From Candidatus Electrothrix sp. GW3-4 (GTDB taxonomy: Bacteria; Desulfobacterota; Desulfobulbia; Desulfobulbales; Desulfobulbaceae), in contig NZ_CP147990.1 of the NCBI RefSeq assembly GCF_037902255.1, forward strand, positions 3,600,001 to 3,632,000: DNA of 32,000 nt. Reading direction: 5' to 3'. The stretch's first letter is position 1, and each line of letters opens with the position of its first letter. Below, piece after piece: positions 1,568 to 28,470 of the stretch. A program made the translations under genes and the position numbers. The notes under the pieces are model-generated. The model saw nothing but the letters and a program-made list of their open reading frames with translations, was not told the origin of the DNA and ran no database searches.

Positions 1568-2022
1568 AAAAGTTGCCTTGTTGAGTAACAGAGTAGTTGT
1601 TATGGTGTTGTTATGGTGCGGGTGAGTAGTCCTGGCTTTACCAGGGGTGAAGCGCCTGCTCTCTGTCGCTTATGCTTTCCAGGAATGGATCAAGGACGAC
1701 TTGTTTTGTTCTCCTCTTTAAGGCCAAAGTATCTGGTGGGGCTTCAATAAAAAACAGAGCAGGAGGGAAAATCACTTTTGGCCCGTTTTTTTTTGTAGTA
1801 AGTTGTAGTAAAATAAGAAACCGTAGTTTGAAAAAGCAGTTAAAAAAGATCACAGACTCTTACTCCTTAAAAAATATACGATATGTCCTCCTCCGAAAAA
1901 ACGCCATAGGGGCTGGCAAGGCGTCGAGCATAAAGCGTGTCCGTTAATCATCAAAATGATGTGTGCCAGAAGAAGCAACTCTATAACTTGTTCCTGTGAT
2001 AGGAAATTTTCCCCAAGATATT

Positions 2023-7083: not shown

Positions 7084-9641
7084 GTTTCGACCTGATCTTC
7101 AACCTGATCTTCGGCCAATGCGATGAGTTTTTGCACGGCATCCGCAACGGTCGGCAGCTTACTGAAATCTCTTGCTGGCATTGTCTGGAGGGTCGCGTTT
7201 TGTTCTTCCTGGACAAAATCGTCCAGAATTTTATCCAGAGCCCCGGCAATGGCTTGAACATTATTAGCTGGCACAGCCAAATGACCATGTTCTGTGAGCA
7301 TGCTGTCCAGTTCCTCATTATTATAGACCAGACCGATAATGGGGCGTCCGGTCAGGAGATATTCATAGACCTTGGAGGGGATGGTCTCACAGGAAAAATA
7401 GATAATATTCTGGATAACCAGTAGGCAATCAGTCTGCTGCATGGCGACCAAGGCCTGCTGTCGTGAAACAATCCCATGCCGAACAACCAGGTCAGTAAGC
7501 CCAAGCCGCTCCATTTCCCGCTCAGACGCTCCGTCAAAAGACCCGTACACGTCGACCTGCACTTTTTCACGGAATCCCGCCCGCTCTTTATACCGATTGA
7601 GAACCTGATGTAGGGCCTGGAAGAAGGTCACCAAGTTGCGGGTTCCAGCCAGCGAACCAAAATGAGCAAAATGGCAGCGTTCTTTTTTGCAGAAATGCTG
7701 TTGAAAAAGTTCCGGTATTGAGCCTGGATACACAACAGCTCCACGACATTGCCCGCCTGTCCTTCTCCTGCAATGCCGCATCGCTGCCTGAACGAGAAAG
7801 ACAAATGCATCCGCATGTTGACCTATCTTTTTTTCCAGGGCCTTGTATACCCGTAATACTCTTTTGCCCCGTCGCCAGCCATGATCATGCACCAAGGGGT
7901 CCTGGGTTTCAGCAATCCAGGTACAACCGGTCCAACGTTTGATCAGCAGGCCAGCAACGTGGGCTGAGGCAGATCCTCCTGTGGAATAGACAACTTCCGG
8001 TCGCAGTTGCCGACAGAGGAGGAAGCCACGCAACGAGGCAAGAAAACACCAGGACCACTCACTCTCCATATTGATGAGGATTTTTTCAAGGAGGTAAAAA
8101 GGGAATATCGGTATCATACAGATGGATTCAACCAGTTTGAACTGCCAACGTTTCTGGAGATGTTTTCGGAGAAAATGGCGGAGTTCAAAACGGATGCCTG
8201 AGGGGGCAAGGCTCAGGGTTCTGAAATGTATCCATTTATCTGAAGGGTTGCCAACCGGACCGCTGAGCAGAATCGGCTCAATTCCTTGGTCGCGGAAAAA
8301 AGGCAGGCGATCATCAATATGTTGAGAGCAGGCTGAGCCTGGAATATTGGCCCGGTAAGAGAGAATCAACCAGCATCTTGGAGAGGCATTTTCGGCAAGG
8401 ACCTCCTGGAGCCGTTGATCAGGTTTCTCTTTAAACAGGGCTGCTGCCATGACAACAAAGAAGAAGGCGGTTTGATAGACTGTAAGGTAGGATTCTGCCA
8501 ACATTATGACCAGGAAGAAGAGAGGCAGTGCTATGCGGAGCCGCTGGAATGGGTCCGGGAGCAATTTTGCCAGCACGAACATGATGATAAAGATCAACAA
8601 AAAGAGGAGGAGACCTGCTCCGCCAAGCATGGCACCTACCAGTACATACTGATTATGGGGGTTGTCGGTTGCAATGCTGGCCGGACTTCTTGTGCTGTTG
8701 ACCTCGGCATAGGCAGACTGAAAGTCACCGGTTCCCACCCCAAACCATGGATGATGTCGAATTATTTCAAGAGAATTTTGAAAGAACAGTAGGCGCATGC
8801 CCACCGAGGTGTCAGGATTTTTTTGAAAACCTTCTATTTCCTGCCGGGCCAAATTAACCCGTTGTTGGAAAGTCGGACTGTACAGGTATCCTATGATGCT
8901 GATGGAGGGCAGGAGGAGAAGGATCGCTAAAGTCGCCTTGAGTCGATTTTGGGCAAAGATCTGGAATAGCAGCAGGCCCATAAGGACAAGAAAAACCGCT
9001 TGGCCGGTCCTCCCCTCGGTGATGAACATATTCACCGTCATCAGGGCGGCAAGGGAAAAAAGAAGCAGACGAGCAGCAGGGTTCCGGCGAGCCAGCCCCC
9101 AAATTGCCTCATGAAAAAGCAAATATATGGCAAAGGCCAAGAGGGGATTATAGATAACGTGAAAGGTCTTCGGGGTCAGGTGGGTTGGGCTGACATCTGC
9201 ATACTGCACCAGCCCAAAACGAGCCAGAAAGGTCATGCCCATAGCCAGCGTCATCCCGCCCAGGAAGGCATAAAGATATAAGGCGCGATAGCGATAGGCT
9301 GCTGCGGTCAGGATCACAGGCAGCAGAGCAAGCTTCCATTGGTCTTTCAGGGCCTCAAGTCCAGCTACAAGGTCATCGGTCCAAAGGAGGCCCAGGCAGA
9401 GCAGGGCAAGAAAGGAAAATACGGCAACTGCAACGGGGTGAGAAACGATCTCAAGACCTTTTTCTATAAATCTGCCCTCAAGCAGCCAGAGCAAGAGAAT
9501 CAGGATGGCCAGCACAGAAACCGCTGAGGTGGACAGGGGCACAGCAAAGGCCAGCAGCGCAGGGAGCAGGCTATTGATCTGGCCGACCCGGTCGCGAAAG
9601 GAGCGGGAAAGGGGACTTTTCTGTTCGGGTGTTGGGTTCAT
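7074..9641 (-). CDS. fusion protein: N-terminal O-antigen ligase/polymerase-like (Wzy_C/WaaL-type) polytopic membrane domain + C-terminal GT-B (GT4-like) glycosyltransferase domain
   Basis: The N-terminal roughly 420 aa are multi-TM, with a periplasmic loop ...RHHPWFGVGTGDF...NPHNQYV typical of WaaL/Wzy_C. The C-terminal roughly 430 aa are soluble, with a GT-B-like tail (IPSKVYEYLLTGRPIIG). Confidence 0.7.
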   Translation of the reverse strand: MNPTPEQKSPLSRSFRDRVGQINSLLPALLAFAVPLSTSAVSVLAILILLLWLLEGRFIEKGLEIVSHPVAVAVFSFLALLCLGLLWTDDLVAGLEALKDQWKLALLPVILTAAAYRYRALYLYAFLGGMTLAMGMTFLARFGLVQYADVSPTHLTPKTFHVIYNPLLAFAIYLLFHEAIWGLARRNPAARLLLFSLAALMTVNMFITEGRTGQAVFLVLMGLLLFQIFAQNRLKATLAILLLLPSISIIGYLYSPTFQQRVNLARQEIEGFQKNPDTSVGMRLLFFQNSLEIIRHHPWFGVGTGDFQSAYAEVNSTRSPASIATDNPHNQYVLVGAMLGGAGLLLFLLIFIIMFVLAKLLPDPFQRLRIALPLFFLVIMLAESYLTVYQTAFFFVVMAAALFKEKPDQRLQEVLAENASPRCWLILSYRANIPGSACSQHIDDRLPFFRDQGIEPILLSGPVGNPSDKWIHFRTLSLAPSGIRFELRHFLRKHLQKRWQFKLVESICMIPIFPFYLLEKILINMESEWSWCFLASLRGFLLCRQLRPEVVYSTGGSASAHVAGLLIKRWTGCTWIAETQDPLVHDHGWRRGKRVLRVYKALEKKIGQHADAFVFLVQAAMRHCRRRTGGQCRGAVVYPGSIPELFQQHFCKKERCHFAHFGSLAGTRNLVTFFQALHQVLNRYKERAGFREKVQVDVYGSFDGASEREMERLGLTDLVVRHGIVSRQQALVAMQQTDCLLVIQNIIYFSCETIPSKVYEYLLTGRPIIGLVYNNEELDSMLTEHGHLAVPANNVQAIAGALDKILDDFVQEEQNATLQTMPARDFSKLPTVADAVQKLIALAEDQVEDQVETCC

Positions 9642-9652
9642 CGATATCTTGG

Positions 9653-11386
9653 TTATCTGTCAGCATACTGCATGGTATATAACCCTTCATAGACACCATG
9701 CTCCTTGAGGAGGTTCTCATGGGTTCCCTCTTCCACCAATCGTCCGTCCTGCATCACAATGATGCGGTCGGCATTCTTGATTGTGGAAAGGCGATGAGCG
9801 ATGACAATAGTGGTCCGGTTTTTCATCAGGTTGTCCAGGGCTTTTTGAACCTTGCGTTCTGATTCCGTGTCCAGGGCCGAGGTGGCCTCATCCAGAACCA
9901 AGATTGGTGCGTCTTTGAGGATGGCCCGGGCAATAGACACGCGCTGACGTTGGCCCCCGGAAAGACGGGTTCCTGATTCACCGATCACTGTATCGAAACC
10001 TTTGGGCAGATCCTCAATAAACTCCAGGGCAAAGGCGGCTTCCGCAGCCTGCCGGATGTCCTCATCTGTGCAGTTTGGACTGCCATAGCCGATATTCTTT
10101 CCCACTGTATCGTTGAACAGGATGGTTTGCTGAGTGACTAAGGCAATCTGGCTGCGCAGAGAGTGCAGGGTCAGGTCCCGGATATCATAGCCATCAATAC
10201 GTAGGGTCCCTTGGGTGATATCGTGAAATCGAGGGATCAGGCTGGCCAGGGTTGTCTTGCCGCCGCCGGAAGGACCGACGACTGCGAGAATTTCTCCTTG
10301 GGCAACCTTGAGGCGGATATCCCGCAGCACGGGTTCTTCCTTATCGTAGGAAAAGGTGACCTTATCGAATTCAATGGCATCATGAAAACGGGGCAGTACT
10401 TGACTGTTCGGCTTTTCTTTGATCTCCGGCTCAATGTCGAGCAGGTTAAAGACGCGGATGGCAGCGGCCATACCCGACTGGATTGTCGAGTTGATTTTGC
10501 TCACGCCTTTGACCGGCTCATAAAGCATAACCAAGGCGGTGAGAAAGGACATAAAGGTGCCTGGTGTGGAATTGCCGCCAAGAACCTGCATACCCCCGAA
10601 CCAGATAATTAGGGCCATGCCGATTCCGCCGAGAAACTCAATTAGGGGATGAGAAAGGCTCCGGAACTTGGTTTCCGTCATCAGGGTGTCAAAAAGGTAC
10701 TGCATTTTTTTTCCAAAGAGCTTCTTTTCCTGCTCTTCCATGCAGAAGGCCTTGACGATGCGGGCGCCTCGGATGGTCTCGTTGAGAAAATCACTGGCTT
10801 CCCCCATGCCCTGCTGATAGCTGGTGCTGATCCGACGAAATTTTTTACCAAAGACCACAATGGGCACCGCAGCCATAGGGATGAAGATCAGCGAGACAAA
10901 GGCCAGTCGCCAATCCATATAAAAAATCACGCCGAGAAGACCGCATACCGTAAAGAAATCTCGCAGCAAATGGATAAGCGCATGGGAGACAGATCCCTGG
11001 AGCATACTGACATCGTTCATGATCCTGGAGATGAGCTCGCCGGTGGAGTTCTTATGAAAAAAGCCCATAGACAGGTCATTGAGATGGGCATAGATCCTGT
11101 TGCGCAGATCTTTAATTACGCATTGCCCAATCCATTCAAGAAGATAAGAGTAGAGAAAATAAAAGACGCCTTTCACTAAAAAAACAGTGAGCAGGGCAAG
11201 GGGAAGGATGACCAACCATTCTTCATTTTTTTGGTAAAAGATCTCATCAAGCAATGGCTTGACCATGTAGGCCTGAGCCGCATTGAAGCCAGCAACAATA
11301 ATCATTGCCAGCATGGCAATAACCAATTTTTTCCTGTACGGTTGCATGACCTGATACAGGCGGGTGAGTATGGTCTTGTTTGTCAT
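9653..11386 (-). CDS. msbA: lipid A export ABC transporter (fused permease/ATPase), MsbA-like
   Basis: A 6-TM type-I exporter domain is followed by an NBD with Walker A GPSGGGKTT, signature LSGGQRQR and Walker B ILVLDEATSALD. The LPS-core gene context supports the MsbA call. Confidence 0.75.
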   Translation of the reverse strand: MTNKTILTRLYQVMQPYRKKLVIAMLAMIIVAGFNAAQAYMVKPLLDEIFYQKNEEWLVILPLALLTVFLVKGVFYFLYSYLLEWIGQCVIKDLRNRIYAHLNDLSMGFFHKNSTGELISRIMNDVSMLQGSVSHALIHLLRDFFTVCGLLGVIFYMDWRLAFVSLIFIPMAAVPIVVFGKKFRRISTSYQQGMGEASDFLNETIRGARIVKAFCMEEQEKKLFGKKMQYLFDTLMTETKFRSLSHPLIEFLGGIGMALIIWFGGMQVLGGNSTPGTFMSFLTALVMLYEPVKGVSKINSTIQSGMAAAIRVFNLLDIEPEIKEKPNSQVLPRFHDAIEFDKVTFSYDKEEPVLRDIRLKVAQGEILAVVGPSGGGKTTLASLIPRFHDITQGTLRIDGYDIRDLTLHSLRSQIALVTQQTILFNDTVGKNIGYGSPNCTDEDIRQAAEAAFALEFIEDLPKGFDTVIGESGTRLSGGQRQRVSIARAILKDAPILVLDEATSALDTESERKVQKALDNLMKNRTTIVIAHRLSTIKNADRIIVMQDGRLVEEGTHENLLKEHGVYEGLYTMQYADR

Positions 11387-11788
11387 AAAATAGCATCGTT
11401 TTTTTTCAAAAGCGTTGTGCAGCGCCTTGGCCAGATCCCTTGTCCTCTCAGCAGGATAGCAACACAGGTGCTTCTTTCAAAGAATATGCTGAGAAGCACG
11501 GAAAACCGGTGACTGAGGAGGCTGGGAAGGTATGTTCATACAGATGCTGGGAACCTATATTATGCCTTAGCAAATATCAAGTAAATAGTAGGATGCTGCT
11601 CAAAATAGCTGGTAAAAGATGGGCGGCCAGATGATTCTCATAGCGGAAGAGAAGAACAGGCTGTACAGGGAGGAGCAAGCTACAGGTTGAAGGTTTGTCG
11701 TGGAGAGTGTAGAATGCGCCCCTGTTGTCTCCGGGTATACGTTCTGACCTGTATCTTACTGCAAATTTCCGAGCGGAGTTTATCTTTC

Positions 11789-12166
11789 ATGCAACGCTTT
11801 ATTTTTTCAATACTTGCTGCTCTGTTGTTCCTTGTTGGTTGCTCCTCAAAGCCGATTCGCCATTTGGCCTCAGATGCTGCTTTAGTTGAGCCGGGAAAAT
11901 CTACACGAGAGGAGGTAGTGCGTTATCTGGGGCAGCCTGATAGACGCCGCCGCCTTTCCCCCGGTGTGGAGGAATATGTCTACTATAATGAACGCAAAGG
12001 ATTTTTCGGGAAGTTGCCCTTTGCTGGTAAGCTGGCTGATCCCAAAAGCTATGAAATGATCCTGGTCACCCTGGATGGCGATGTGGTGACGGATTGTGAT
12101 TTTCTGATCCATAAAGCAGGTGATGAGGACTGGGCGAGCGACTTGAACGGAGATGAACTTCCGTGA
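11789..12166 (+). CDS. SmpA/OmlA (BamE-like) outer-membrane lipoprotein
   Basis: The internal ATG at 11789 gives [20 protein letters not shown], a lipoprotein signal with lipobox LVGC. The motif [16 protein letters not shown] resembles BamE. The ORF-track start at 11687 is probably too far upstream. Confidence 0.6.
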
Positions 12167-12819
12167 GTGCAAGCGCCCTCTCTGCTTTTGCCATTCATCG
12201 GCAACGAATGACGGAAACGCTTGTTGAACGCGGCATTCAAGATCCTGCGACGTTGCGTGCCATGACCGAGGTGCCTCGACATCAGTTTGTCGAAGATGCT
12301 ATGCAGGCCCGGGCCTATGGTGATTTCCCCTTGCCCATTGGTTCTAACCAGACTATCTCCCAACCCTTTGTTGTCGCCTTGATGACCCAGGCACTCTGGC
12401 TTCAGGGCCATGAACGGGTGCTGGAAATCGGCACGGGCTCCGGTTATCAGGCTGCGGTGCTTTCCCGGCTCTGCAGGCAGGTGTACACGGTCGAACGGAT
12501 CCATTCCCTCCTTGGCCGCGCCCGGAAGGTCTTTGATCAACTCCATTATTATAATATTATTTCCTGCATAGATGATGGTACGGTGGGCTGGGCTGATCAG
12601 GCCCCTTTTGATGCGATCGTGGTGACAGCAGGCGGCCCAAAGATTCCAGAACCCCTGGTGGAGCAGCTGGCAGATCCGGGCAGGATGGTTATGCCGGTGG
12701 GTACGCAAGAAGAGCAGGAATTGCAGCTTCTGGAGAAGCGCAACAGAAGAATCAGGATACAATCTATCGGGCATGTTCGCTTTGTCAACCTGATAGGGGA
12801 ACACGGCTGGAGAGAATAG
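12163..12819 (+). CDS. pcm: protein-L-isoaspartate O-methyltransferase
   Basis: Contains [15 protein letters not shown] and the SAM-binding motif [16 protein letters not shown]. The GTG start overlaps the upstream stop (GTGA). Confidence 0.9.
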
Positions 12820-13542
12820 ATGGAGAAGGAAGAGGGAAAGGCGCAAAAGGAGCAGGAGCTACGTGCTGCCAAGCAAAAAAAGCCCGGCCTGATCCGGCGT
12901 CTCTATGATTGGATGTTGAGCTGGGCAGACAGTCCCTATGGGCTGCATGCCCTTGTCATTATCTCATTTGCCGAATCCAGCTTTTTCCCCATTCCACCTG
13001 ATGTGCTGCTGATTGCCTTGGTCCTTGGGGCAACCACCCGTTGGTACAAGTTTGCCTTGTGGTGCACCTTGGCCTCAGTGGTTGGCGGGCTGGCTGGCTA
13101 CGGTATTGGGGTCTTCGGCTGGGAGACTATCGGGCAATGGATTATCCAGCACATCGCCCATATGAAGTTGACTGAGGTGAATGGTCGACTGGACATAGCG
13201 CTTCCCACCTACCTTGTCTCCAGTTTGGGCACTTCCTTAGGCGGAGAATACCTCTTTCAGGTCTACGATCACTGGAACGCCTGGATTGTCTTTGTCTTTG
13301 GCCTGACACCTCTGCCATACAAGCTGGTCACCATTACCGCTGGCGTAGCCCGGGTCAATCTCCCGGTTTTCTTGGTCGCCTCCATCCTTTCCCGGTCCTT
13401 GCGCTTTTTCCTGGTGGCCTGGATCCTCTCAAAATGGGGTGTTCCAGCAAGGCGCTTTATTGATCGCTATTTCAATCTACTGTCAATTGCTTTTGTTGTG
13501 TTACTGGTTGGTGGTTTTTTAATTTTAAAATTGGTTATGTAA
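12820..13542 (+). CDS. YqaA/DedA-family (SNARE-associated) inner membrane protein
   Basis: FAESSFFPIPPDVLLIAL is the characteristic YqaA/DedA motif. The protein is multi-TM and starts immediately after the pcm stop. Confidence 0.7.
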   Translation: MEKEEGKAQKEQELRAAKQKKPGLIRRLYDWMLSWADSPYGLHALVIISFAESSFFPIPPDVLLIALVLGATTRWYKFALWCTLASVVGGLAGYGIGVFGWETIGQWIIQHIAHMKLTEVNGRLDIALPTYLVSSLGTSLGGEYLFQVYDHWNAWIVFVFGLTPLPYKLVTITAGVARVNLPVFLVASILSRSLRFFLVAWILSKWGVPARRFIDRYFNLLSIAFVVLLVGGFLILKLVM

Positions 13543-13629
13543 CCTACCTGCCTTCTCATTGAATGCGGCGATTTACCTCGATCGTATTTCTTGAGAAGAA
13601 CGTTTTTTTTCGACCAGGACCGTTTTTTC

Positions 13630-13657
13630 TTGACCAAAAAAGTGCCGCTGGTATTAT
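13630..13657 (+). promoter_or_regulatory. sigma70-like promoter for the tRNA gene
   Basis: TTGACC (13630-13635), a 16-nt spacer, then TATTAT (13652-13657), about 20 nt upstream of the tRNA 5' end. Confidence 0.4.
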
Positions 13658-13677
13658 AGAGGGTTTGTGTTAATTGG

Positions 13678-13754
13678 GGGCCTATAGCTCAGTTGGCTAG
13701 AGCCACCGGCTCATAACCGGTAGGTCCTTGGTTCGAATCCAAGTAGGCCCACCA
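13678..13754 (+). tRNA. tRNA with CAT anticodon (elongator Met, or Ile2 if lysidine-modified; not an initiator)
   Basis: Manual cloverleaf: acceptor GGGCCTA/TAGGCCC, D-stem GCTC/GAGC, anticodon stem ACCGG/CCGGT with loop CTCATAA, T-arm CTTGG-TTCGAAT-CCAAG, encoded CCA. A paired G1-C72 and the absence of a GGG/CCC anticodon stem argue against fMet. Confidence 0.9.
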
Positions 13755-13961
13755 ATTTTCAGAAAGCTTAAGCAGAGAAATAGGAGATGGGCTATGACCA
13801 GCTCCTTTTTGATAACCTCATTCTTTTATCGTCTTTTGAGTCCTCATACCTTGAGCAAAAAATCCTGCCTGCTAAGGAGCTTTTCCTTACAGGACAGCAG
13901 AAAGCAAACGTCAATATGAGAGGTACACCCTTTATGGGCTGTGCCTCTTTTTCTTTTTATT

Positions 13962-14783
13962 GTGGTAAAAGTTCAGAATATACTTGATATTCTTCAAGGG
14001 ATAGCCCCTCTTGATCTCGCTCAGTCCTGGGATAATGTCGGTCTGCTCGTCGGCAACCCTGACAGTAGGGTCACCTCGATTCTCCTTGCCCTGGACCCGA
14101 CCACGTCCCTGCTGGCCGAGGCAGAGCGATGCCAGGCCGAACTTATCATCACCCATCATCCGGCTATCTTTCATCCTCTGAAAAGCCTGCGTTCGGATCG
14201 TCCTACAGAAAAATTTTCTCATGCCGCTGTGCAGGCGGGGATACATGTCATCGGTTGTCATACCAATCTGGATGCCACCTCTGGCGGGGTGAATGATGTG
14301 CTCGCGCAACTGCTTCACCTGCAAGAGACGACTCCTCTGCTGCCAGACGGCAGAGAGTATTGCGGAAAAAAAACAGGCCTGGGTCGAATCGGGATGCTTG
14401 CGGAGCCGATTTCTTCGGAGCATTTTCTGGAACAACTGGATGCCGTGCTTTCTCCCCCTTGGTTGCTGGAAGCGGGGTCACGGCCTGCCAAGGTTGCCCA
14501 GGTCGCGGTGTGCGGCGGATCCTGCTCTGATGTTGCTGCGACGGCCTTAGCTGCCGGAGCAGATGTGTTTCTCACCTCTGAAATTAAGCATGATGTAGCC
14601 CGCTGGGCTGAAGAAGCTGGGCTCTGGTTGCTTGATGGCGGGCATTTTGCTACGGAATATCCGGCAATGGAAGGATTACGACAGTTGCTCGTTGCGAGGA
14701 TGGAGACCGCTGGTCTGGAAGTGCAGGTGCAATGCGCTCAACAGGAGCCCCCACTACGCTTGGCAGCTGGAAAAAGTCGCTGA
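13962..14783 (+). CDS. Nif3-like dinuclear metal centre protein (YbgI/GTP cyclohydrolase 1 type 2 family)
   Basis: The N-terminus ILDILQGIAPLDLAQSWDNVGLLVG and HHP, CHTNLD motifs are present. The start is uncertain: GTG 13962 is preferred, and GTG 13941 is also possible. Confidence 0.85.
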   Translation: MVKVQNILDILQGIAPLDLAQSWDNVGLLVGNPDSRVTSILLALDPTTSLLAEAERCQAELIITHHPAIFHPLKSLRSDRPTEKFSHAAVQAGIHVIGCHTNLDATSGGVNDVLAQLLHLQETTPLLPDGREYCGKKTGLGRIGMLAEPISSEHFLEQLDAVLSPPWLLEAGSRPAKVAQVAVCGGSCSDVAATALAAGADVFLTSEIKHDVARWAEEAGLWLLDGGHFATEYPAMEGLRQLLVARMETAGLEVQVQCAQQEPPLRLAAGKSR

Positions 14784-21122: not shown

Positions 21123-21842
21123 TCACGGCTCTCGCACCTCAAGAGAGAAACAGAGATACCCGAACTGCTGCTCAATATAGGCAAGCAGGGTGTAGATGAG
21201 CAGAACAATCCCGTTCATCTCTAAAAACTCCTCAATGGTATAGAGTACGGTATAGGTGACACTGTAATAGCCGTGCAGCTCAGCCTCTCGCCCGCCAAGC
21301 ATATCAAAGCCTGCCGCCCCGGTAAGAAAGATAATCGCAGAAAGGATCAAGAGAACCGCTGTCTTGCGGGGCAGCCGGAGGATAAAGCGAAAATAGAGGA
21401 TCCCCAGGATGGCCATCAAGATACTGTAGGGAAGAATCCAGGGGAAATAGAGCAATCCGCTTGCCTCAAGAATCCCTGTTGATCTGATGTATTCTTTTGT
21501 GTACTCACCGAGTCTCTCATGCAGGACAAAGGCTTCATCCAGGGAGAGAAAGAGAAAAACAGCGGCAAGACCGAGCCAATAACAGCGCTTCCTTCCCTGC
21601 TTTTTCTCTAATGACGAGATACAAAAAAAGAGCAGGGAAGATAAAAACAGGGCAAAGCCTGAATAAAAGGAAGGGATATTCTTCTCTATATCCAGATCAA
21701 CATATGCTGCAATTCCCCTCAAGTCCTGATTCCCGGTAGAGAGAAGAACTGTCTGGGCGATACTGTGCAGCACGGTCAAGAGAATGACAAATGCCAGAAA
21801 AAAGAGAGCTGTTTCTCGGGGATGTATTTTCAGCTGAAACAT
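21123..21842 (-). CDS. hypothetical polytopic membrane protein, paralog A (about 6 TM; intramembrane LDEAFVLHE and EEFLEMNG motifs)
   Basis: Six hydrophobic segments. It is a clear paralog of 22762..23493, and the C-terminal third is almost identical at the DNA level. Confidence 0.7.
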   Translation of the reverse strand: MFQLKIHPRETALFFLAFVILLTVLHSIAQTVLLSTGNQDLRGIAAYVDLDIEKNIPSFYSGFALFLSSLLFFCISSLEKKQGRKRCYWLGLAAVFLFLSLDEAFVLHERLGEYTKEYIRSTGILEASGLLYFPWILPYSILMAILGILYFRFILRLPRKTAVLLILSAIIFLTGAAGFDMLGGREAELHGYYSVTYTVLYTIEEFLEMNGIVLLIYTLLAYIEQQFGYLCFSLEVREP

Positions 21843-22097: not shown

Positions 22098-22433
22098 CTA
22101 ACGCCCTCCATTAGCGCCGCGATATTCGTAGCGGCTACCGCGCTCGTATCCACTGCCGCGATACTCATACCGATCATCATCGGAGTAGCGGCGGTCGTTG
22201 CCTCGATACTCATAACGATCATCATCATAATAGCGCCCGGTTCCGTGATACGCATAACGATCATCGGAGTAACGTCCTCCATAATTGCCACGATATTCGT
22301 AGCGGCTACCGCGGTCGTAGTATCCACTGCCGCGCTCGTATCCACTACCGCGCCCACTGCCGTGGGCAGTTGCGAAGAGTGCCAGTACGAGGAATGATCC
22401 GACCAGGGTTAGGGCTGCTGTTTTCTTTTTCAT
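22098..22433 (-). CDS. small secreted R/G/Y/D-rich repeat protein ((D)RYEYRG repeats)
   Basis: A GGAGG SD lies 8 nt before the ATG. The signal peptide is MKKKTAALTLVGSFLVLALFATAHG. The mature part consists almost entirely of R, G, Y, D, S, E with RYEYRG recurring. Confidence 0.65.
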   Translation of the reverse strand: MKKKTAALTLVGSFLVLALFATAHGSGRGSGYERGSGYYDRGSRYEYRGNYGGRYSDDRYAYHGTGRYYDDDRYEYRGNDRRYSDDDRYEYRGSGYERGSRYEYRGANGGR

Positions 22434-22761: not shown

Positions 22762-23493
22762 TCACGGCTCTCGTACCTCAAGAGAGAAGCAGAGATGCCC
22801 GAACTGCTGCTCAATATAGGCAAGCAGGGTGTAGATGAGCAGAACAATCCCGTTCATCTCTAAAAACTCCTCAATGGTATAGAGTACGGTATAGGTGACA
22901 CTGTAATAGCCGTGCAGCTCAGCCTCCCGCCCGCCAAGCATATCAAAGCCTGCAGCCCCGGTAAGAAAGATAATCGCAGAAAGGATCAGAAGAACCGCTG
23001 TCTTGCGGGGCAGCCGAAGGATGAAGCGAAAATAGAACAATCCCAAGAGAGTCGTCAAAATACTGTAGGGAATGATCCAGGGGAAATAGAGCAGGCCGCT
23101 GACTTGCAGGATCCCTGTCCGCTGCATATATTCCTCTGTAAGGTCACCGAGCCCCTCATGGAGGACAAAGGCCTCGTCCAGGGCTAAGAAGAAAAAAACA
23201 CCGGCCAGCCCCAGCCAATAGAGCGGCCTTTGTCTGCCTTGTCTCTTCTCCAATACAGCGAGGGCAAAAAAAAGGAGAGAACAGCACAAGATCGCAAAGG
23301 CCGAATACAAGGAGGGGATATTCTTCTCAATATCCAGATCAACATAGCCTGTAATATCCAAGAGTTCCTGATTACCGGTAGCGAGAAGAACCGTCAGGGC
23401 AATACTATGGAGCACGGTCAACAAGATGACGATGACCAGGAAGAAGAGGGCCGTTTTTCGAGGATGAAGTTGCAACTGGAACATAGATGACAA
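22762..23493 (-). CDS. hypothetical polytopic membrane protein, paralog B
   Basis: Same architecture and motifs as paralog A (LDEAFVLHE, EEFLEMNG). By alignment with A (MFQL...), the second ATG at 23484 may be the true start. Confidence 0.7.
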   Translation of the reverse strand: MSSMFQLQLHPRKTALFFLVIVILLTVLHSIALTVLLATGNQELLDITGYVDLDIEKNIPSLYSAFAILCCSLLFFALAVLEKRQGRQRPLYWLGLAGVFFFLALDEAFVLHEGLGDLTEEYMQRTGILQVSGLLYFPWIIPYSILTTLLGLFYFRFILRLPRKTAVLLILSAIIFLTGAAGFDMLGGREAELHGYYSVTYTVLYTIEEFLEMNGIVLLIYTLLAYIEQQFGHLCFSLEVREP

Positions 23494-23601
23494 GGGGAGC
23501 TAAAAGTAATTGAAAGAAAAAAAGGAACCATTTATGGTACTATACCGAACTCAACAATATATTGCTTTCCTGAATTAAGCTCACCGCCACGGAAGAAAGA
23601 G

Positions 23602-24954
23602 ATGACCGACCACAGGAACAAGGAGAACGAGAACATCTCCATCTGGGAGGCCAAGAATCGGCTGACCTTTAATGAACCGCTCCGGCCCGATGATGAGCTG
23701 AGCCAACGCCTCTTTGTCGAGACCTCCTCGGCCCGGGGGGACTTCAGCCTCAAACGCCTGTACCGGGAACTGAACGTGGATAATCAGGGCATGGCCCATA
23801 CCGCGCCCCGCAAGCAGTACATCCTCTTTACCGGCCATCGTGGTTGCGGCAAGAGCACTGAGCTCCTCCGTACCGCCGCCTTCCTGCACCATCCAGACCG
23901 CTATTACGTCATCCATCTCGATTGCCTGGAACGGCTGGACATCAACAACCTCAAATACTCGGACGTACTCCTGGCCCTGGCAGCGGCCCTGCTGGAACGA
24001 CTGGAGCAGGAAGAGGGGATCATCATTGAGCAGGTCTTTCTCACCCGCCTGGAGAACTGGTTCAGGGAGCGGGTGGAGGTCCATAGTGCCCTCCAGGACT
24101 TTGCCGCTGAGGTCAAGGCCGGGGCCAAGCTACAGACCGGCCTGCCCTGGCTGGGGAAGCTGTTCGGGGAGCTGACCAATAAGATCAACATCGGGTCCAG
24201 CTATCGGGAAGAGCTGCGCCTGGTGGTCCGCAATAACTTCAGCGAATTTGCCGAGGCCTTTAACCAACTCATCCTGGCGGGCGAGGAAAAGCTCCGGGAG
24301 GCAGGCAAGGGACGACGCATCCTCTTTACCGTGGACGGCACCGACCGCCTGGACCAGGAAGATGCCCCTAAGTTCTTTGTCGAGGATGTCCACCAGCTCA
24401 CCCAGATCAATGGCCTGTTCATCTACTGCGCCCCCATCCATCTCCTCCACCAGGACAACTGCCTTACGGCCAGCTTCAGCCAGCCCTTTCGCCTGCCCAT
24501 GCTCAAGGTTCGGGATCGGGACGGGGATGATGTCACGGAAAACATCGCGGTGATGCGGGAGCTGGCCCTGCGCCGGGTGCCGGAACACCTCTTTGATGAG
24601 CTGGACACGGTGGACTCTCTGGTTCGCCATAGCGGCGGCCACCTCCGGGATCTGCTCCGCCTCCTCAATGTGGCGATCAACTATGCTGATGAGGACCGCA
24701 TTGACCGGGCTGCGGCGAAAAAGGCGGTCAAGCAGGTGGCCAATGAATACCGCCGCTTCATCAACACCGAAGACTATGCCCGCCTGGTCCAGATCGACCT
24801 GCACCCGGATGCGCCGGATGATTTCACGGACGAGCAGAGCAGCCTGATGCTCTATAATCTGATCCTGCTGGAGTATAACGATTACTTCTGGAAGAGCCAT
24901 CCCCTGATCACCACCCTGCCTGGTTATCAAAAGGCCATGCAGGCGACCGGCTAA
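23602..24954 (+). CDS. P-loop NTPase, AAA+ ORC/Cdc6-like (uncharacterised)
   Basis: Walker A FTGHRGCGKST, a Walker-B-like RRILFTVDGTDRLD, and a C-terminal helix HSGGHLRDLLRLLNVAINYA..IDRAAAKKAV reminiscent of the Cdc6/ORC sensor-2 region. Confidence 0.65.
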   Translation: MTDHRNKENENISIWEAKNRLTFNEPLRPDDELSQRLFVETSSARGDFSLKRLYRELNVDNQGMAHTAPRKQYILFTGHRGCGKSTELLRTAAFLHHPDRYYVIHLDCLERLDINNLKYSDVLLALAAALLERLEQEEGIIIEQVFLTRLENWFRERVEVHSALQDFAAEVKAGAKLQTGLPWLGKLFGELTNKINIGSSYREELRLVVRNNFSEFAEAFNQLILAGEEKLREAGKGRRILFTVDGTDRLDQEDAPKFFVEDVHQLTQINGLFIYCAPIHLLHQDNCLTASFSQPFRLPMLKVRDRDGDDVTENIAVMRELALRRVPEHLFDELDTVDSLVRHSGGHLRDLLRLLNVAINYADEDRIDRAAAKKAVKQVANEYRRFINTEDYARLVQIDLHPDAPDDFTDEQSSLMLYNLILLEYNDYFWKSHPLITTLPGYQKAMQATG

Positions 24955-26457
24955 ATGAGCGGAGAGGGGCAAAAAGACTGGCAGGTACAACCGGAGCACT
25001 CCGGCTGCCTGGTCCGTTTGCAGAGGCTGCTCCAACGGGCCGCTGGCTTTCGCCTCCTTATCCTGCAACAGAACCAGCCTCTCTACCGGGACGGGCTGAT
25101 TACCTTCCTGGAAGAAGCGCAAGCGAACAGCCGGGTCCTGAACCTGAAAGAGCTGGGGAGCTTCGAGGCCTTTGAAGCGGAGCTGGAACAGCTCGGTCAG
25201 GGACGGATCCTCCATCTGATCAATCTGGAGGGCCTGGGAACGAAGGAGCAGCAGGCCTTTTTCAAGGGCCTGAACTACCACCGGGAATACATCGCCCGGA
25301 CCTGCTCCGGTATCCTGGCCTTCTGGTTACCCGAGCCCTTGGTGCGGGCAATGGCCTTGCAGGCGGCGGACTTCTGGGTCTGGCGGGAACAGGTGCTGGA
25401 TTTCACCGTGCCTGTTGAGCCGGTGGAACGGATGGCCGTTGACTGGGTCAAAAGCCAGAACATGGAGGTTTCCGGGAAACAGGAGCGGATCAAAGAGATT
25501 GAGGCGTTCTTTGTCCGCCCTGCGGAACAGCCATCGTTAAGTACTGCTGACCTGAAGCAGGAGCTGAGCAATCTCTACCAATCAATCGGCGAGTACACCA
25601 AGGCCAAGCAGGTGCTCAAGGAGGCAATTGCGGAGTACAGAGATCTGGATGAGGCAGCAGCATGCGCTCGTGCCCGCTATAATCTTGCGGTTTTAATATC
25701 AGCTCAAGGGGAGCATGAGCAAGCGCTGAAGATATTCAGGGAGCAGGTTCTCCCGGTCAATGAAAGCCTCAATGACATACGAAACAAAGCCGTCACTATG
25801 GGCAGGATCGCTGATATTCTTCAAGCCAAAGGACAAATCGACAAGGCACTGGAAATTTATCGGGAAGAACAACTCCCGATCTTTGAAAAGATCCAAGATG
25901 TACAAGCACAAGCCGTCACTATGGGCAGGATCGCTGATATTCTTCAAGCCAAAGGACAAATCGACAAGGCACTGGAAATTTATCGGGAAGAACAACTCCC
26001 GATCTTTGAAAAGATCCAAGATGTACGAGAAAAAGCCGTCACTATGGGCAAGATCGCGGACATACTCCAGGCAAGAGGGGAACTCGACAAGGCTCTCGAT
26101 ATTCGCAGGAACGAAGAACTGCCCGTCTATGAACGACTCGGCGATGTGCGAGCAAAAGCCGTCACTATGGGCAAGATCGCGGACATACTCCAGGCAAGAG
26201 GGGAACTCGACAAGGCTCTGGATATTCGCAAGAACGAACAGCTGCCCGTCTATGAACGACTCGGCGATGTACATAGCTTATTGATCGGACGAGCCAATCT
26301 GGCGCTGCTCCTGTTACAAATTAACGCGCAAGACCACAAGGATGAAATCAGGGACCTGCTCCAACTGGCCCTCAGCGACGCCCGACGCCTCAAGCTACCC
26401 AAGGAAACAGCACAGATTAAAAACATTATGAAGGATTTGCAGATCAAACCGCAATAA
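24955..26457 (+). CDS. TPR-like repeat protein with a P-loop-less NTPase-like N-terminal domain
   Basis: It starts on the base after the upstream stop (TAAATG). It carries at least six 41-residue helical repeats (e.g. AVTMGRIADILQAKGQIDKALEIYREEQLPIFEKIQDVQAQ). The N-terminal roughly 150 aa have beta-alpha alternation (FRLLILQQN, ILHLINLEG) but no GxxxxGK[ST]. Confidence 0.7.
   Translation: MSGEGQKDWQVQPEHSGCLVRLQRLLQRAAGFRLLILQQNQPLYRDGLITFLEEAQANSRVLNLKELGSFEAFEAELEQLGQGRILHLINLEGLGTKEQQAFFKGLNYHREYIARTCSGILAFWLPEPLVRAMALQAADFWVWREQVLDFTVPVEPVERMAVDWVKSQNMEVSGKQERIKEIEAFFVRPAEQPSLSTADLKQELSNLYQSIGEYTKAKQVLKEAIAEYRDLDEAAACARARYNLAVLISAQGEHEQALKIFREQVLPVNESLNDIRNKAVTMGRIADILQAKGQIDKALEIYREEQLPIFEKIQDVQAQAVTMGRIADILQAKGQIDKALEIYREEQLPIFEKIQDVREKAVTMGKIADILQARGELDKALDIRRNEELPVYERLGDVRAKAVTMGKIADILQARGELDKALDIRKNEQLPVYERLGDVHSLLIGRANLALLLLQINAQDHKDEIRDLLQLALSDARRLKLPKETAQIKNIMKDLQIKPQ
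25789..26280 (+). repeat. four tandem 123-nt coding repeats (pattern A-A-B-B) inside the TPR gene
   Basis: Units lie at 25789-25911, 25912-26034, 26035-26157 and 26158-26280. A1 and A2 differ only in the last three codons. B1 and B2 differ at a handful of positions plus the unit end. Confidence 0.9.
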
Positions 26458-26480: not shown

Positions 26481-26599
26481 AACAGACGTTTGTCAGCAGC
26501 ATTTACACGTCTGAATGCAGCAAACAGACGTTTGTCAGCAGCATTTACACGTCTGAATGCAACAAACAGACGTTTACCAGGAGCATTCAAACATCTGTT
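26481..26599. repeat. three tandem 42-nt intergenic repeats, each a CAGACGT-N17-ACGTCTG hairpin/palindrome
   Basis: Units start at 26481, 26523 and 26565, an exact 42-nt period. Units 1 and 2 are identical over 38 nt; unit 3 is degenerate (aacagacgttt...aaacatctgtt). Confidence 0.85.
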
Positions 26600-27243: not shown

Positions 27244-28470
27244 ATGAAGACTATGATGAAACCGTCCTCCCCTCTTCTTCTCTGCCTGCTGTTCCTCTGC
27301 GGCCCTGTCTCCCTGCTCCCGGCCCACGAGCTGCATCTCACCAACGGTCGCATCATCAGCACCGATAATGTCTGGCGGGAAGGAGAGACCGTTCATTACA
27401 AACAATACGGTGGCACCGTTTCCATCCCCTATAGCCGGGTCAAGGGCGTGGTCTATGACAGGCCTCAGAAAGAGGAAAGAGAAGCTGCCGAGCAACAGCC
27501 AGAGAAGGAACAGGCTCTCCAAAGGCCGCGGCCATCAATTCCTCCGGAAAAAGATCTGGCTGCACGACTGAACACGGCCCTGTCCCCGAAAACCCCTGTG
27601 GAGCAGGCCAGCATGTGTACCCTTTCCGTCAAGACGGCTGCGGGCTTTGGCTCTGGATTTTTCATCTCTGAGGACGGCTACATCGTCACCAATAAACATG
27701 TAGTTCGGGGCAGTAAAAGGCAATTCCAGCAGGTTAAGACAAGGATTAAGCAAAGCCGAAAGAATCTTCGCCAGTATAAGCGTTCTCTGATCACGGCCAC
27801 AAAACAGTACCAGAGCTATCGAGAGGATCTGGAAGAAAAGAAGGCCCTCTTGGAGAAGCTGAAAAAAGCAGGCCGGATCGACAGGACCTCTTTCAAGGCC
27901 AAGCAACAGGAACTACGGGCCGCAGAACAACGCCTTCAGGGGGAGGAGCAACGATTAGCCAAGGCCCAAAAAAAGTACCGGACAGAGAAACAGCGCTTTG
28001 ATAAGGAGGTGGAGACATTTCATGGTGCCCAACAAAAATTAGCAGGCCAGGGCAGCTTCACCATTATCCTGGCCGACGAAACCGAACTCTACGCCAGCCT
28101 CTATAGAATCAGTGACAAGCATGACTTAGCCTTACTGAAGATCACGGGTTACAAGACGCCATTTCTCCAGCCTGTTCTGGAGAAGGAGCTGGTTCAGGGC
28201 CAGAAGGTCTTTGCTGTGGGCAGCCCTGTGGATCTCAGCCTGAAAAACACCGTGACCTCCGGGGTCCTCTCGGCTTTTCGTGATAATTTCATCCAGACCA
28301 ATGCCCAGATCTATCCCGGCAATAGCGGCGGTCCTTTAATTGACAGCAAGGGGCGGGTGATCGGGATCAACACCAAGAAACTCCTCACCGAACGATTTGA
28401 GGGACTGGGCTTTGCCATACCTATTCGTCTCGTCTTTTCTGAGTTCGAGGATTATCTCCTCCAGGACTAA
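27244..28470 (+). CDS. secreted trypsin-like (S1/HtrA-type, no PDZ) serine protease with a coiled-coil insertion
   Basis: Signal peptide; catalytic His in IVTNKHVV, Asp in HDLALLKI, Ser in GNSGGPLID. About 115 highly charged helical residues lie between the His and the strand preceding the Asp. Confidence 0.8.
   Translation: MKTMMKPSSPLLLCLLFLCGPVSLLPAHELHLTNGRIISTDNVWREGETVHYKQYGGTVSIPYSRVKGVVYDRPQKEEREAAEQQPEKEQALQRPRPSIPPEKDLAARLNTALSPKTPVEQASMCTLSVKTAAGFGSGFFISEDGYIVTNKHVVRGSKRQFQQVKTRIKQSRKNLRQYKRSLITATKQYQSYREDLEEKKALLEKLKKAGRIDRTSFKAKQQELRAAEQRLQGEEQRLAKAQKKYRTEKQRFDKEVETFHGAQQKLAGQGSFTIILADETELYASLYRISDKHDLALLKITGYKTPFLQPVLEKELVQGQKVFAVGSPVDLSLKNTVTSGVLSAFRDNFIQTNAQIYPGNSGGPLIDSKGRVIGINTKKLLTERFEGLGFAIPIRLVFSEFEDYLLQD

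Follow-up and report, generated by a model that had tools for sequence, protein, structure and literature searches.

A conserved AAA+ ATPase and pseudo-ATPase-TPR gene pair in Candidatus Electrothrix as a candidate split STAND-like sensor

What is the use of two abutting genes that pair a P-loop ATPase with a tetratricopeptide repeat (TPR) protein and carry no recognisable effector? The question is raised by a 32,000-nt stretch of Candidatus Electrothrix sp. GW3-4 (contig NZ_CP147990.1, positions 3,600,001-3,632,000), hereafter the window, in whose own numbering all positions are given. Within it two open reading frames, ORF1 and ORF2 (Table 1), follow one another, and the product of ORF2 matches a Ca. 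Electrothrix sp. GW3-4 protein at 100% identity. The earlier note on this DNA, made from the letters alone, delimited both frames, with coordinates and lengths that prove exact, and saw in them the separated parts of a sensor of the STAND type (signal transduction ATPases with numerous domains). The pair is a conserved cassette. That it is a self-contained, horizontally mobile two-gene module working as a split sensor of the STAND or NOD-like receptor (NLR) type is, in our judgement, an evenly poised proposition, and on the separate proposition that it serves immunity or conflict, with assembly of the ATPase as its output, we are equally divided.

The evidence for a cassette is comparative. 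Homologues of ORF1 fall into at least 829 clusters, and relatives of ORF1 occupy at least 558 loci in species-representative genomes of many phyla, including Desulfobulbaceae, Thiotrichales, methanotrophs, Myxococcota, Acidobacteriota, Verrucomicrobia, Spirochaetia, Nitrospirota, Chloroflexota, Planctomycetota and Bacteroidota, together with many filamentous cyanobacteria and Methanothrix. They are patchily distributed, and filamentous cyanobacteria, Myxococcota and others have several paralogs in one genome. From these loci 80 were kept as a synteny sample, about 78 of them informative, and at no fewer than 54 of the latter a protein bearing the N-terminal domain of ORF2 (residues 1-160, hereafter the N-domain) is encoded immediately downstream on the same strand, most of the exceptions being truncated contigs. 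The two genes typically overlap by 4-44 nt or are separated by 0-12 nt. In the window the ORF1 stop codon (TAA, 24952-24954) abuts the ORF2 start (ATG, 24955-24957), with no GGAGG-type Shine-Dalgarno sequence upstream of that ATG, exactly as had been read from the sequence at the outset, and the translational coupling proposed on that ground finds its counterpart in the tight spacing or overlap of the two genes across many phyla. The linkage also holds in reverse: in Entotheonella, Beggiatoa and Parasulfuritortus (3/3) the N-domain gene is preceded by a gene of 434-450 aa, a putative relative of ORF1 with at most a faint ATPase_2 match. Moreover, pairwise identities among the ATPases correlate with those among their N-domain partners (r=0.82; Mantel 0/999, 50 pairs). 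Clustering of all neighbours at 79 loci returned no third recurrent gene, and no effector domain is recognisable in the pair, in keeping with the first impression of the locus. With strong synteny in both directions, ORF1 and ORF2 are, on these sequence comparisons, a conserved cassette, and we consider it very probable that their proteins act together.

What kind of ATPase, then, is ORF1? Both of the Walker motifs first noticed are present, the Walker B strand (ILFTVDGTDRLD) lying at residues 239-251, some 160 residues after Walker A and not the 170 originally estimated, and the long helical insert described between them is borne out. In the AlphaFold2 (AF2) model, built on 44 homologues (pLDDT 90.2, pTM 0.89), an N-terminal helical segment leads into a P-loop alpha/beta core with the insert, followed by the lid (312-361) and a winged-helix-like domain (369-432) composed of helices and then a beta-hairpin at 422-432; DSSP places six helices of the insert between residues 119 and 233. 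The insert has an isoelectric point (pI) of 4.9 and a maximum 19-residue hydropathy (KD19) of 0.98, with no segment of transmembrane grade. In the lid, G345, G346 and R349 are invariant in 44/44 homologues, and the family consensus reads SGGHPRD, with L replacing P in the GW3-4 protein. Since the Walker A, Walker B and lid residues are invariant in all 44, we take ORF1 to be a catalytically intact AAA+ ATPase under purifying selection.

Its affiliation is less easily given a name. Against the PDB, Foldseek places three archaeal Cdc6/Orc1 structures first (1fnn, 2qby and 1w5t; E 5e-5 to 1e-4), followed by PABY2304, SSO1545 and RADAR RdrA (8hra, rank 6), then HslU, RuvB, RFC and TnsC, with NOD2 at rank 37; the alignment with the Cdc6/Orc1 chains spans the full length of ORF1, with modest TM-scores of 0.35-0.5. 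The Pfam family ORC-CDC6-like (PF24389) reaches 26.3 bits, against a cut-off of 27, over ORF1 residues 338-390 and positions 417-468 of the 571 in the profile, which is to say the lid, and this is exactly the stretch containing the helix HSGGHLRDLL that the earlier note had likened to the sensor-2 region of ORC/Cdc6-type proteins. The lid match and the Foldseek ranking together uphold that assignment. Other matches are weaker: NACHT at residues 238-259 (14.3 bits against a cut-off of 26.7), nSTAND_NTPase5 (14.5 bits, cut-off 34), and AAA_16 and ATPase_2, both sub-threshold. No curated family of Pfam or NCBIfam matches ORF1 above threshold, and a PDB-sequence profile search with the ORF1 alignment returned P-loop noise only. 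We place ORF1 at the border of ORC/Cdc6, STAND and KAP ATPases, outside every defined family.

The N-domain of ORF2 appears to be a second ATPase fold, this one dead. Its AF2 model (pLDDT 89.8) is a five-stranded alpha/beta domain of the order helix-(beta-alpha)x4-beta, and its Foldseek matches are AAA+/RecA-type cores only: Skd3, ORC3/4/5, MuB, Hda, clamp-loader delta', RuvB, TnsC and IstB. GK[ST] and a conserved Walker B acid are both absent from it, while N107, R110, W124, D139, W141 and W143 are invariant and R144 is present in 27/28 sequences. Because an AAA+ fold is found here with neither Walker A nor a conserved Walker B acid, the model points to a pseudo-ATPase, which agrees with the initial description of an NTPase-like fold lacking a P-loop. 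No Pfam family covers residues 1-160. The domain is conserved in partner proteins, with 45% identity in Thiothrix and 31% in a gammaproteobacterium, and an exhaustive HMMER search gathers a family of 379 clusters at 50% identity; that search and a full-length query were used in place of a word-indexed N-domain search, which gave 4 close matches only. Among the clusters listed, the N-domain stands at the extreme N-terminus in 150/150, with no ATPase-first fusion there, and 96 of the 124 best matches to the TPR array carry it. Behind the N-domain the 41-residue TPR-like array noted earlier is present, with seven units rather than six, of which units 3 and 4, and likewise 5 and 6, are almost identical in protein sequence. 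Units of the AVTMG type number 3-7 across orthologues and 3-6 in cable bacteria.

The TPR array on one chain and the winged helix on the other also bring to mind a two-chain switch of the MalT/AfsR type, in which the TPR protein would be the sensor of a metabolite or peptide, and the ATPase, binding DNA through its winged helix, would regulate the neighbouring genes. TPR_MalT and AfsR-like TPR matches in ORF2 are consistent with such a switch, as is the collinearity of ORF1 with the DNA-binding Orc1/Cdc6 proteins, and many non-defence STAND clades are regulators. The winged-helix region is acidic, however (pI 5.55), as is the whole of ORF1 (about 5.5), no LuxR, SARP or other output helix-turn-helix (HTH) domain is present, and there are no conserved neighbouring genes to serve as targets. 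We regard this explanation as improbable.

More can be learned from loci that depart from the standard two-gene plan. In cyanobacteria, their megaplasmids included, the partner of the ATPase is a protein of 900-2060 aa in which the N-domain is followed by TPRs, an nSTAND1 NTPase and WD40 propellers. In these proteins the pseudo-ATPase domain stands at the N-terminus, the place of effector or adaptor domains in STAND receptors. A Xenococcaceae cyanobacterium (L074:487-8796) has a three-gene chain that opens with an ORF1-type ATPase, continues with a fusion of an N-domain to an ORF1-type ATPase (1905-3965) and ends with a 1600-aa protein of N-domain and WD40 repeats. Elsewhere, in Methylovulum (L019:8953-11370) and Pseudanabaena (L066:9938-12913), ORF1-type ATPases are fused to ABC-type ATPases of the AAA_15/AAA_21 families, the Pseudanabaena fusion carrying EAD1 as well; these fusions rest on naive ORF calls, and neither locus has a downstream N-domain partner. 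In two cyanobacterial contigs (L058 and L059, about 7100-14630), homologues 28% identical to ORF1 adjoin FtsZ, FtsQ and a glycosyl hydrolase and have no N-domain partner, and they may belong to a functionally different subfamily.

How might a split sensor of this kind work? The pseudo-ATPase domain would act as a subunit specialised for docking, which joins ORF1 oligomers or nucleates them, and R144 of ORF2, which lies just before strand 5, may contribute an arginine to the ORF1 ATP site. Binding of a ligand to the TPR array would control the ATP-dependent assembly, and that ligand would most likely be a foreign protein. The output would most likely be made by the ATPase assembly itself, because no other gene is conserved and a distant single-gene relative, the anti-phage ATPase DS-41 described below, protects alone. 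ORF1 would then be a recruited effector or partner, since the TPR-nSTAND1-WD40 receptors of cyanobacteria are headed by the same docking domain. A bolder version, which we advance tentatively and consider rather unlikely, would make the pseudo-AAA+ domain a new adaptor that couples interchangeable sensors to a common ORF1-type effector by heterotypic co-assembly of two AAA+ folds, comparable to adaptor pairing through Death-fold or EAD domains but dependent on nucleotide. Proteobacteria and others would use the TPR array by itself as the sensor and cyanobacteria an entire TPR-nSTAND1-WD40 receptor, the ATPase oligomer would be the executioner, as in single-gene DS-41, and the whole would amount to a new and widespread class of binary immune receptor enriched in filamentous and multicellular prokaryotes.

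The genomic surroundings of the cassette differ widely. In the window they are core genome, with lipopolysaccharide glycosyltransferases, an O-antigen ligase, an MsbA-like ABC transporter, NIF3, IspDF, CbiA, OmpW and AcrB, and no mobile-element genes lie near the pair; among Electrothrix species the locus is syntenic, between CbiA and Trypsin_2/OmpW. In Thiothrix the cassette lies between glycosyltransferases and Nrf-type genes. Elsewhere, one cassette adjoins ParE/HTH genes and an integrase fragment, another an Eco47II restriction-modification system and another ParE, and on a conjugative plasmid the cassette lies between two tyrosine recombinases together with HicAB and a NACHT protein. In a gammaproteobacterium (GCA_024235055; L003:1-17323) the pair, at 8001-10862, is found amid Bro-N, a Toprim/VapE primase, a GpA terminase and an HTH gene, with a further Bro-N, DUF5131 and GMT-wHTH (winged HTH) genes, and seems to be carried as cargo by an element resembling a phage or satellite. 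Plasmid matches are confined to cyanobacterial megaplasmids.

At the same time, several of our results weigh against an immune split sensor, and they deserve to be set out together. In the window and in the sister species alike, the locus sits amid core genes, and a scan of 135 flanking ORFs at 27 loci with PADLOC and Pfam models found mostly housekeeping functions and few matches to defence models, with no strong defence-island signal. A search of 50,697 phage records gave no homologue. PADLOC-DB v2 has no match for ORF1 and for ORF2 only the generic TPR model PDLC01169. The N-domain owes its AAA+ assignment to Foldseek matches with E-values of about 6e-4 to 7e-3, at TM-scores of 0.43-0.57. 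The relationship to DS-41 is likewise faint, since ORF1 relatives score about 20-40 bits with the DS41_1 model against a family cut-off of 370, and direct pairwise comparison of DS-41 with the ORF1 family (BLASTP, hhalign) is not significant. Finally, the corresponding locus of E. laxa and E. aestuarii has ORF1 without ORF2. In these two species (L088:11374-11565 and L005:9353-9509, respectively) ORF1 is intact, at 83% and 68% identity, and is followed after about 150-190 nt by the 138-139-aa gene that comes after ORF2 in the window.

What do the surroundings say about mobility? Because the contexts are unrelated, the flanks mostly housekeeping and the phage records without matches, we conclude that the cassette is mobile over evolutionary time and sometimes cargo of mobile elements, and that it is not consistently found in defence islands. 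The association with variable regions or defence genes raised by the earlier note holds for the loci linked to phage genes, plasmids, integrases, toxin-antitoxin or restriction-modification systems, but not for GW3-4 and its sister species, where the locus is core, nor for the bulk of the flanks. Mobility also invites a different reading of the ATPase, as an accessory of mobile elements in the manner of MuB, IstB or TnsC that would act in target selection or element maintenance. The structural matches of the two proteins include MuB, IstB, TnsC and RuvB, and some loci adjoin integrases, insertion sequences or phage genes, yet no transposase or integrase is consistently linked, most loci have none, the window has no mobile genes nearby, and partners with TPR, WD40 or STAND domains are foreign to ATPases of this type. 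We consider this very improbable.

The main rival is a non-immune one, in which ORF1 would be an AAA+ remodelling or assembly machine of large or filamentous bacteria and ORF2 its substrate-recruiting pseudo-subunit, for example in envelope or protein-complex assembly. Housekeeping complexes often contain an inactive AAA+ subunit, as with clamp-loader delta' and ORC, and both of these are represented in the fold matches of the N-domain. The mostly housekeeping flanks, the synteny within Electrothrix, the conservation of the upstream promoter region, the want of an effector domain, the negative PADLOC result and the absence of the family from phages all fit such a machine. What speaks against it is that the context differs between phyla with no recurrent client gene, that the family is patchy, multi-copy and plasmid-borne, that ORF2 is dispensable in the sister species, and that the number of repeats differs from array to array and the repeats within an array are nearly identical; partners with nSTAND1 and WD40, and fusions to EAD1 or AAA_15/21, are moreover typical features of conflict systems. 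On balance we think a housekeeping machine unlikely, if well worth keeping in view, and we continue to favour the split sensor.

Table 1. Features of the ORF1-ORF2 locus, in window coordinates
Feature	Position	Strand	Basis or remark
ORF1, 450-aa AAA+ ATPase, ORC/Cdc6-STAND-KAP affinity	23602..24954	+	Profiles, AF2 model, Foldseek
Walker A GHRGCGKST, residues 78-86	23833..23859	+	G78, G81, G83, K84, S85, T86 invariant 44/44
Helical insert, about 125 aa, residues ~108-235	23923..24306	+	Between strand 2 and Walker B strand
Walker B strand RRILFTVDGTDRLD, residues 239-251, NACHT-like hhhhDGxD	24316..24354	+	D245, G246, D248 invariant 44/44
Lid with SGGH(P/L)RDLLRLL sensor-2-like motif, residues 312-365	24535..24696	+	ORC-CDC6-like and AAA_assoc_2 matches
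Winged-helix-like C-terminal domain, residues 366-450	24697..24951	+	Model, Cdc6/Orc1 alignment
ORF2, 500 aa, predicted pseudo-AAA+ domain and TPR array	24955..26457	+	Profiles, AF2 model
N-domain, residues 1-160, predicted degenerate AAA+ alpha/beta core without Walker A or B	24955..25434	+	AF2, Foldseek
Seven 41-residue TPR-type units, residues 197-483	25543..26403	+	TPR_12, TPR_10, TPR_MalT
123-nt tandem DNA repeat, 3.6 copies, 88% matches	25786..26226	+	Encodes near-identical units 3-6
Promoter-like element TTGAAA-17 nt-TATGGT	23510..23538	+	Upstream of ORF1; overlaps palindrome; promoter function inferred
42-nt repeat, 2.5 copies	26481..26587	+	After ORF2; adjacent, module membership not shown

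Do the sequences on either side of the two genes belong to the system? The promoter-like element upstream of ORF1 is a lone consensus match, and the number of such matches is within chance expectation. The intergenic region around it (23494-23601) is conserved across four Desulfobulbaceae, with TTGAAAG invariant and a TATGGT-like hexamer 17 nt downstream, and these conserved elements look like a -35/-10 promoter. An imperfect palindrome had been pointed out in the same region and is indeed present at 23525-23540, but its symmetry is not maintained in sister species and its arms show no compensatory changes; with the symmetry not conserved and the overlying promoter-like match within chance, we rejected it as an operator. 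Downstream of ORF2, the three hairpin repeats reported earlier correspond to a 42-nt repeat that does exist, as two perfect copies and one degenerate one, each containing CAGACGT...ACGTCTG, in a region whose fold is stable (z=-4.2) and which has no T-tract terminator on the + strand. The repeat is private to the GW3-4 genome, being absent from all 90 related loci, and was rejected as a system component because it is conserved in none of them. In E. laxa a single degenerate copy of part of the motif lies directly after the ORF1 stop.

On the far side of the intergenic region, on the reverse strand, are two membrane-protein paralogs of about 240 aa (21123-21842 and 22762-23493), 81% identical and without a Pfam family, with a small secreted ORF rich in Arg, Gly and Tyr (RGY) between them (22098-22433). 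Since sister Electrothrix genomes have one syntenic copy of the membrane protein, the pair looks like a recent local duplication. The suggestion that this divergent cluster takes part in the system did not survive comparison, because the cluster is absent beyond the Desulfobulbaceae. The upstream membrane protein was likewise rejected as a third component or effector, the upstream gene in Thiothrix being unrelated and no third gene being conserved. A Trypsin_2 protease gene lies downstream (27244-28470, +), with a signal-peptide-like N-terminus and a long charged insert, probably coiled-coil, ahead of the protease domain; it too was rejected as an effector, as its synteny with the ATPase is confined to Electrothrix and a signal peptide is present. 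Farther off, the window encodes an unusual fusion of an MshEN and T2SSE secretion-type ATPase to a C-terminal cyclic-nucleotide-binding domain (1996-4275, +).

Why should the pair matter? If it is an immune or conflict module, it would be a widespread addition to the NLR-like repertoire of prokaryotes, present in at least 558 species genomes, with carriers that include cable bacteria, Thiothrix, Beggiatoa, methanotrophs, Myxococcota, filamentous cyanobacteria and Methanothrix. It would also represent a new way of building a receptor, in which the NTPase switch and the sensor are on separate chains linked through a dead ATPase domain, with no classical effector. Should the pair have no immune role, its N-domain would still merit definition as a family in its own right, being a large unannotated group that has a clear partner.

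How does the cassette compare with what is already known? The earlier note could match it to no named system and expected PADLOC to be negative if the system is novel, as it proved to be for ORF1. It is true that no curated family or PADLOC model covers the pair, and that the pair is not described in the 2026 STAND census or in the diversity-generating retroelement (DGR) paper, but the design had been predicted before, in nSTAND2, and DS-41 offers a distant relative. The best structural matches of ORF1 are Orc1/Cdc6 and the PF01637-type archaeal ATPases PABY2304 and SSO1545, with which it shares the order of core, lid and winged helix and a sensor-2-like G-x-x-R-D/A-L-L; it differs from them in its insert of about 125 aa, its acidic winged helix, its lack of an origin context, and its bacterial and patchy distribution. 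RADAR RdrA, a fold match of ORF1, is similar in being an AAA+/STAND-like defence ATPase with a separately encoded partner. RdrA is about 850 aa long, however, and pairs with the deaminase RdrB, whereas here there is no deaminase and no PADLOC match for ORF1.

As in ORF1, the two Walker motifs of KAP (PF07693) and Sll1717 ATPases are separated by a large insertion. Some ORF1 relatives pass the KAP threshold (L066, with 24 bits against 20) or carry an NCBI KAP annotation, whereas GW3-4 ORF1 has no KAP match at E<=1 and its insert lacks KAP-like transmembrane helices. With the Sll1717 model (NF047389), GW3-4 ORF1 scores 31.5 bits against a cut-off of 75; because 44/44 relatives match this model below threshold (best E 1.6e-16; 19-41 bits in those scored individually), the ORF1 family looks, at the sequence level, like a sister family of Sll1717. 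The Sll1717 ATPases are its nearest relatives, with DS-41 a distant one.

Of the features by which Leipe et al. (2004) define STAND NTPases, ORF1 has GxxGxGKST and FxVDGTD, both invariant in 44/44, and a lid followed by a winged helix; a profile match above threshold is lacking, and so are sensor repeats and an effector on the NTPase chain, the TPRs being on ORF2. The Avs and bNACHT receptors resemble the cassette in joining an NTPase switch to a TPR or WD40 sensor array and in the diversification of the repeats, and the Walker B of ORF1 has the NACHT-like DGxD. They are single chains with an N-terminal effector, whereas here the ATPase and the sensor are separate and linked via the pseudo-ATPase domain, and no Avs, NACHT or NB-ARC model reaches threshold on ORF1 or ORF2. 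MoxR and vWA genes, which mark the iSTAND and iSTAND2 ternary systems (Kaur et al. 2020, 2021), were found neither in the window nor at the 79 loci.

The closest design is that of nSTAND2, a mobile two-gene system predicted by Kaur, Iyer, Burroughs & Aravind (eLife 2021; PMC8195603, Fig. 6C). There the first gene encodes an active STAND NTPase with a wHTH, and the second an inactive STAND module with a wHTH, TPRs and HEPN or GT4; the two products were proposed to assemble into a toroidal hetero-multimer that keeps an arginine finger (PMC8195603). In both systems, then, a gene for an active NTPase with a wHTH is followed by one that joins an inactive NTPase to TPRs. The inactive module of nSTAND2, however, is about 315 aa long with a lid and wHTH and ends in HEPN or GT4, whereas that of ORF2 is a core of about 160 aa with no effector after the TPRs, and no HEPN or GT4 match was found in ORF2. 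Homology to the alignment of the inactive nSTAND2 module was sought with hhalign and not detected (0.1% probability for the N-domain, 1% for ORF1).

The last comparison is with DS-41 (construct AAA2, WP_033812887.1), a validated single-gene anti-phage system of E. coli (DefensePredictor, Science 2026; PMC13092281). DS-41 is a single ATPase of 502 aa that protects E. coli from several BASEL phages (PMC13092281). The DS-41 model of NCBIfam (DS41_1, NF053860) matches 36 of the 44 ORF1-family members collinearly at E<=0.01 (best 6e-9), with no match to GW3-4 ORF1 itself at E<=1. Since direct comparison is not significant, DS-41 is, on its sequence, at best a distant relative of ORF1. It differs in being a single gene with no pseudo-ATPase-TPR partner. 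Nonetheless, DS-41 and ORF1 are similar in size (502 aa against 450) and share, in the same order, an N-terminal segment, Walker A, a long helical insert, Walker B (hhhhDxxDE in DS-41) and a lid motif (SPRELIKL in DS-41), and both lack a separate effector. If the cassette is immune, it would provide a mechanistic handle on single-gene ATPase defences of the DS-41 kind.

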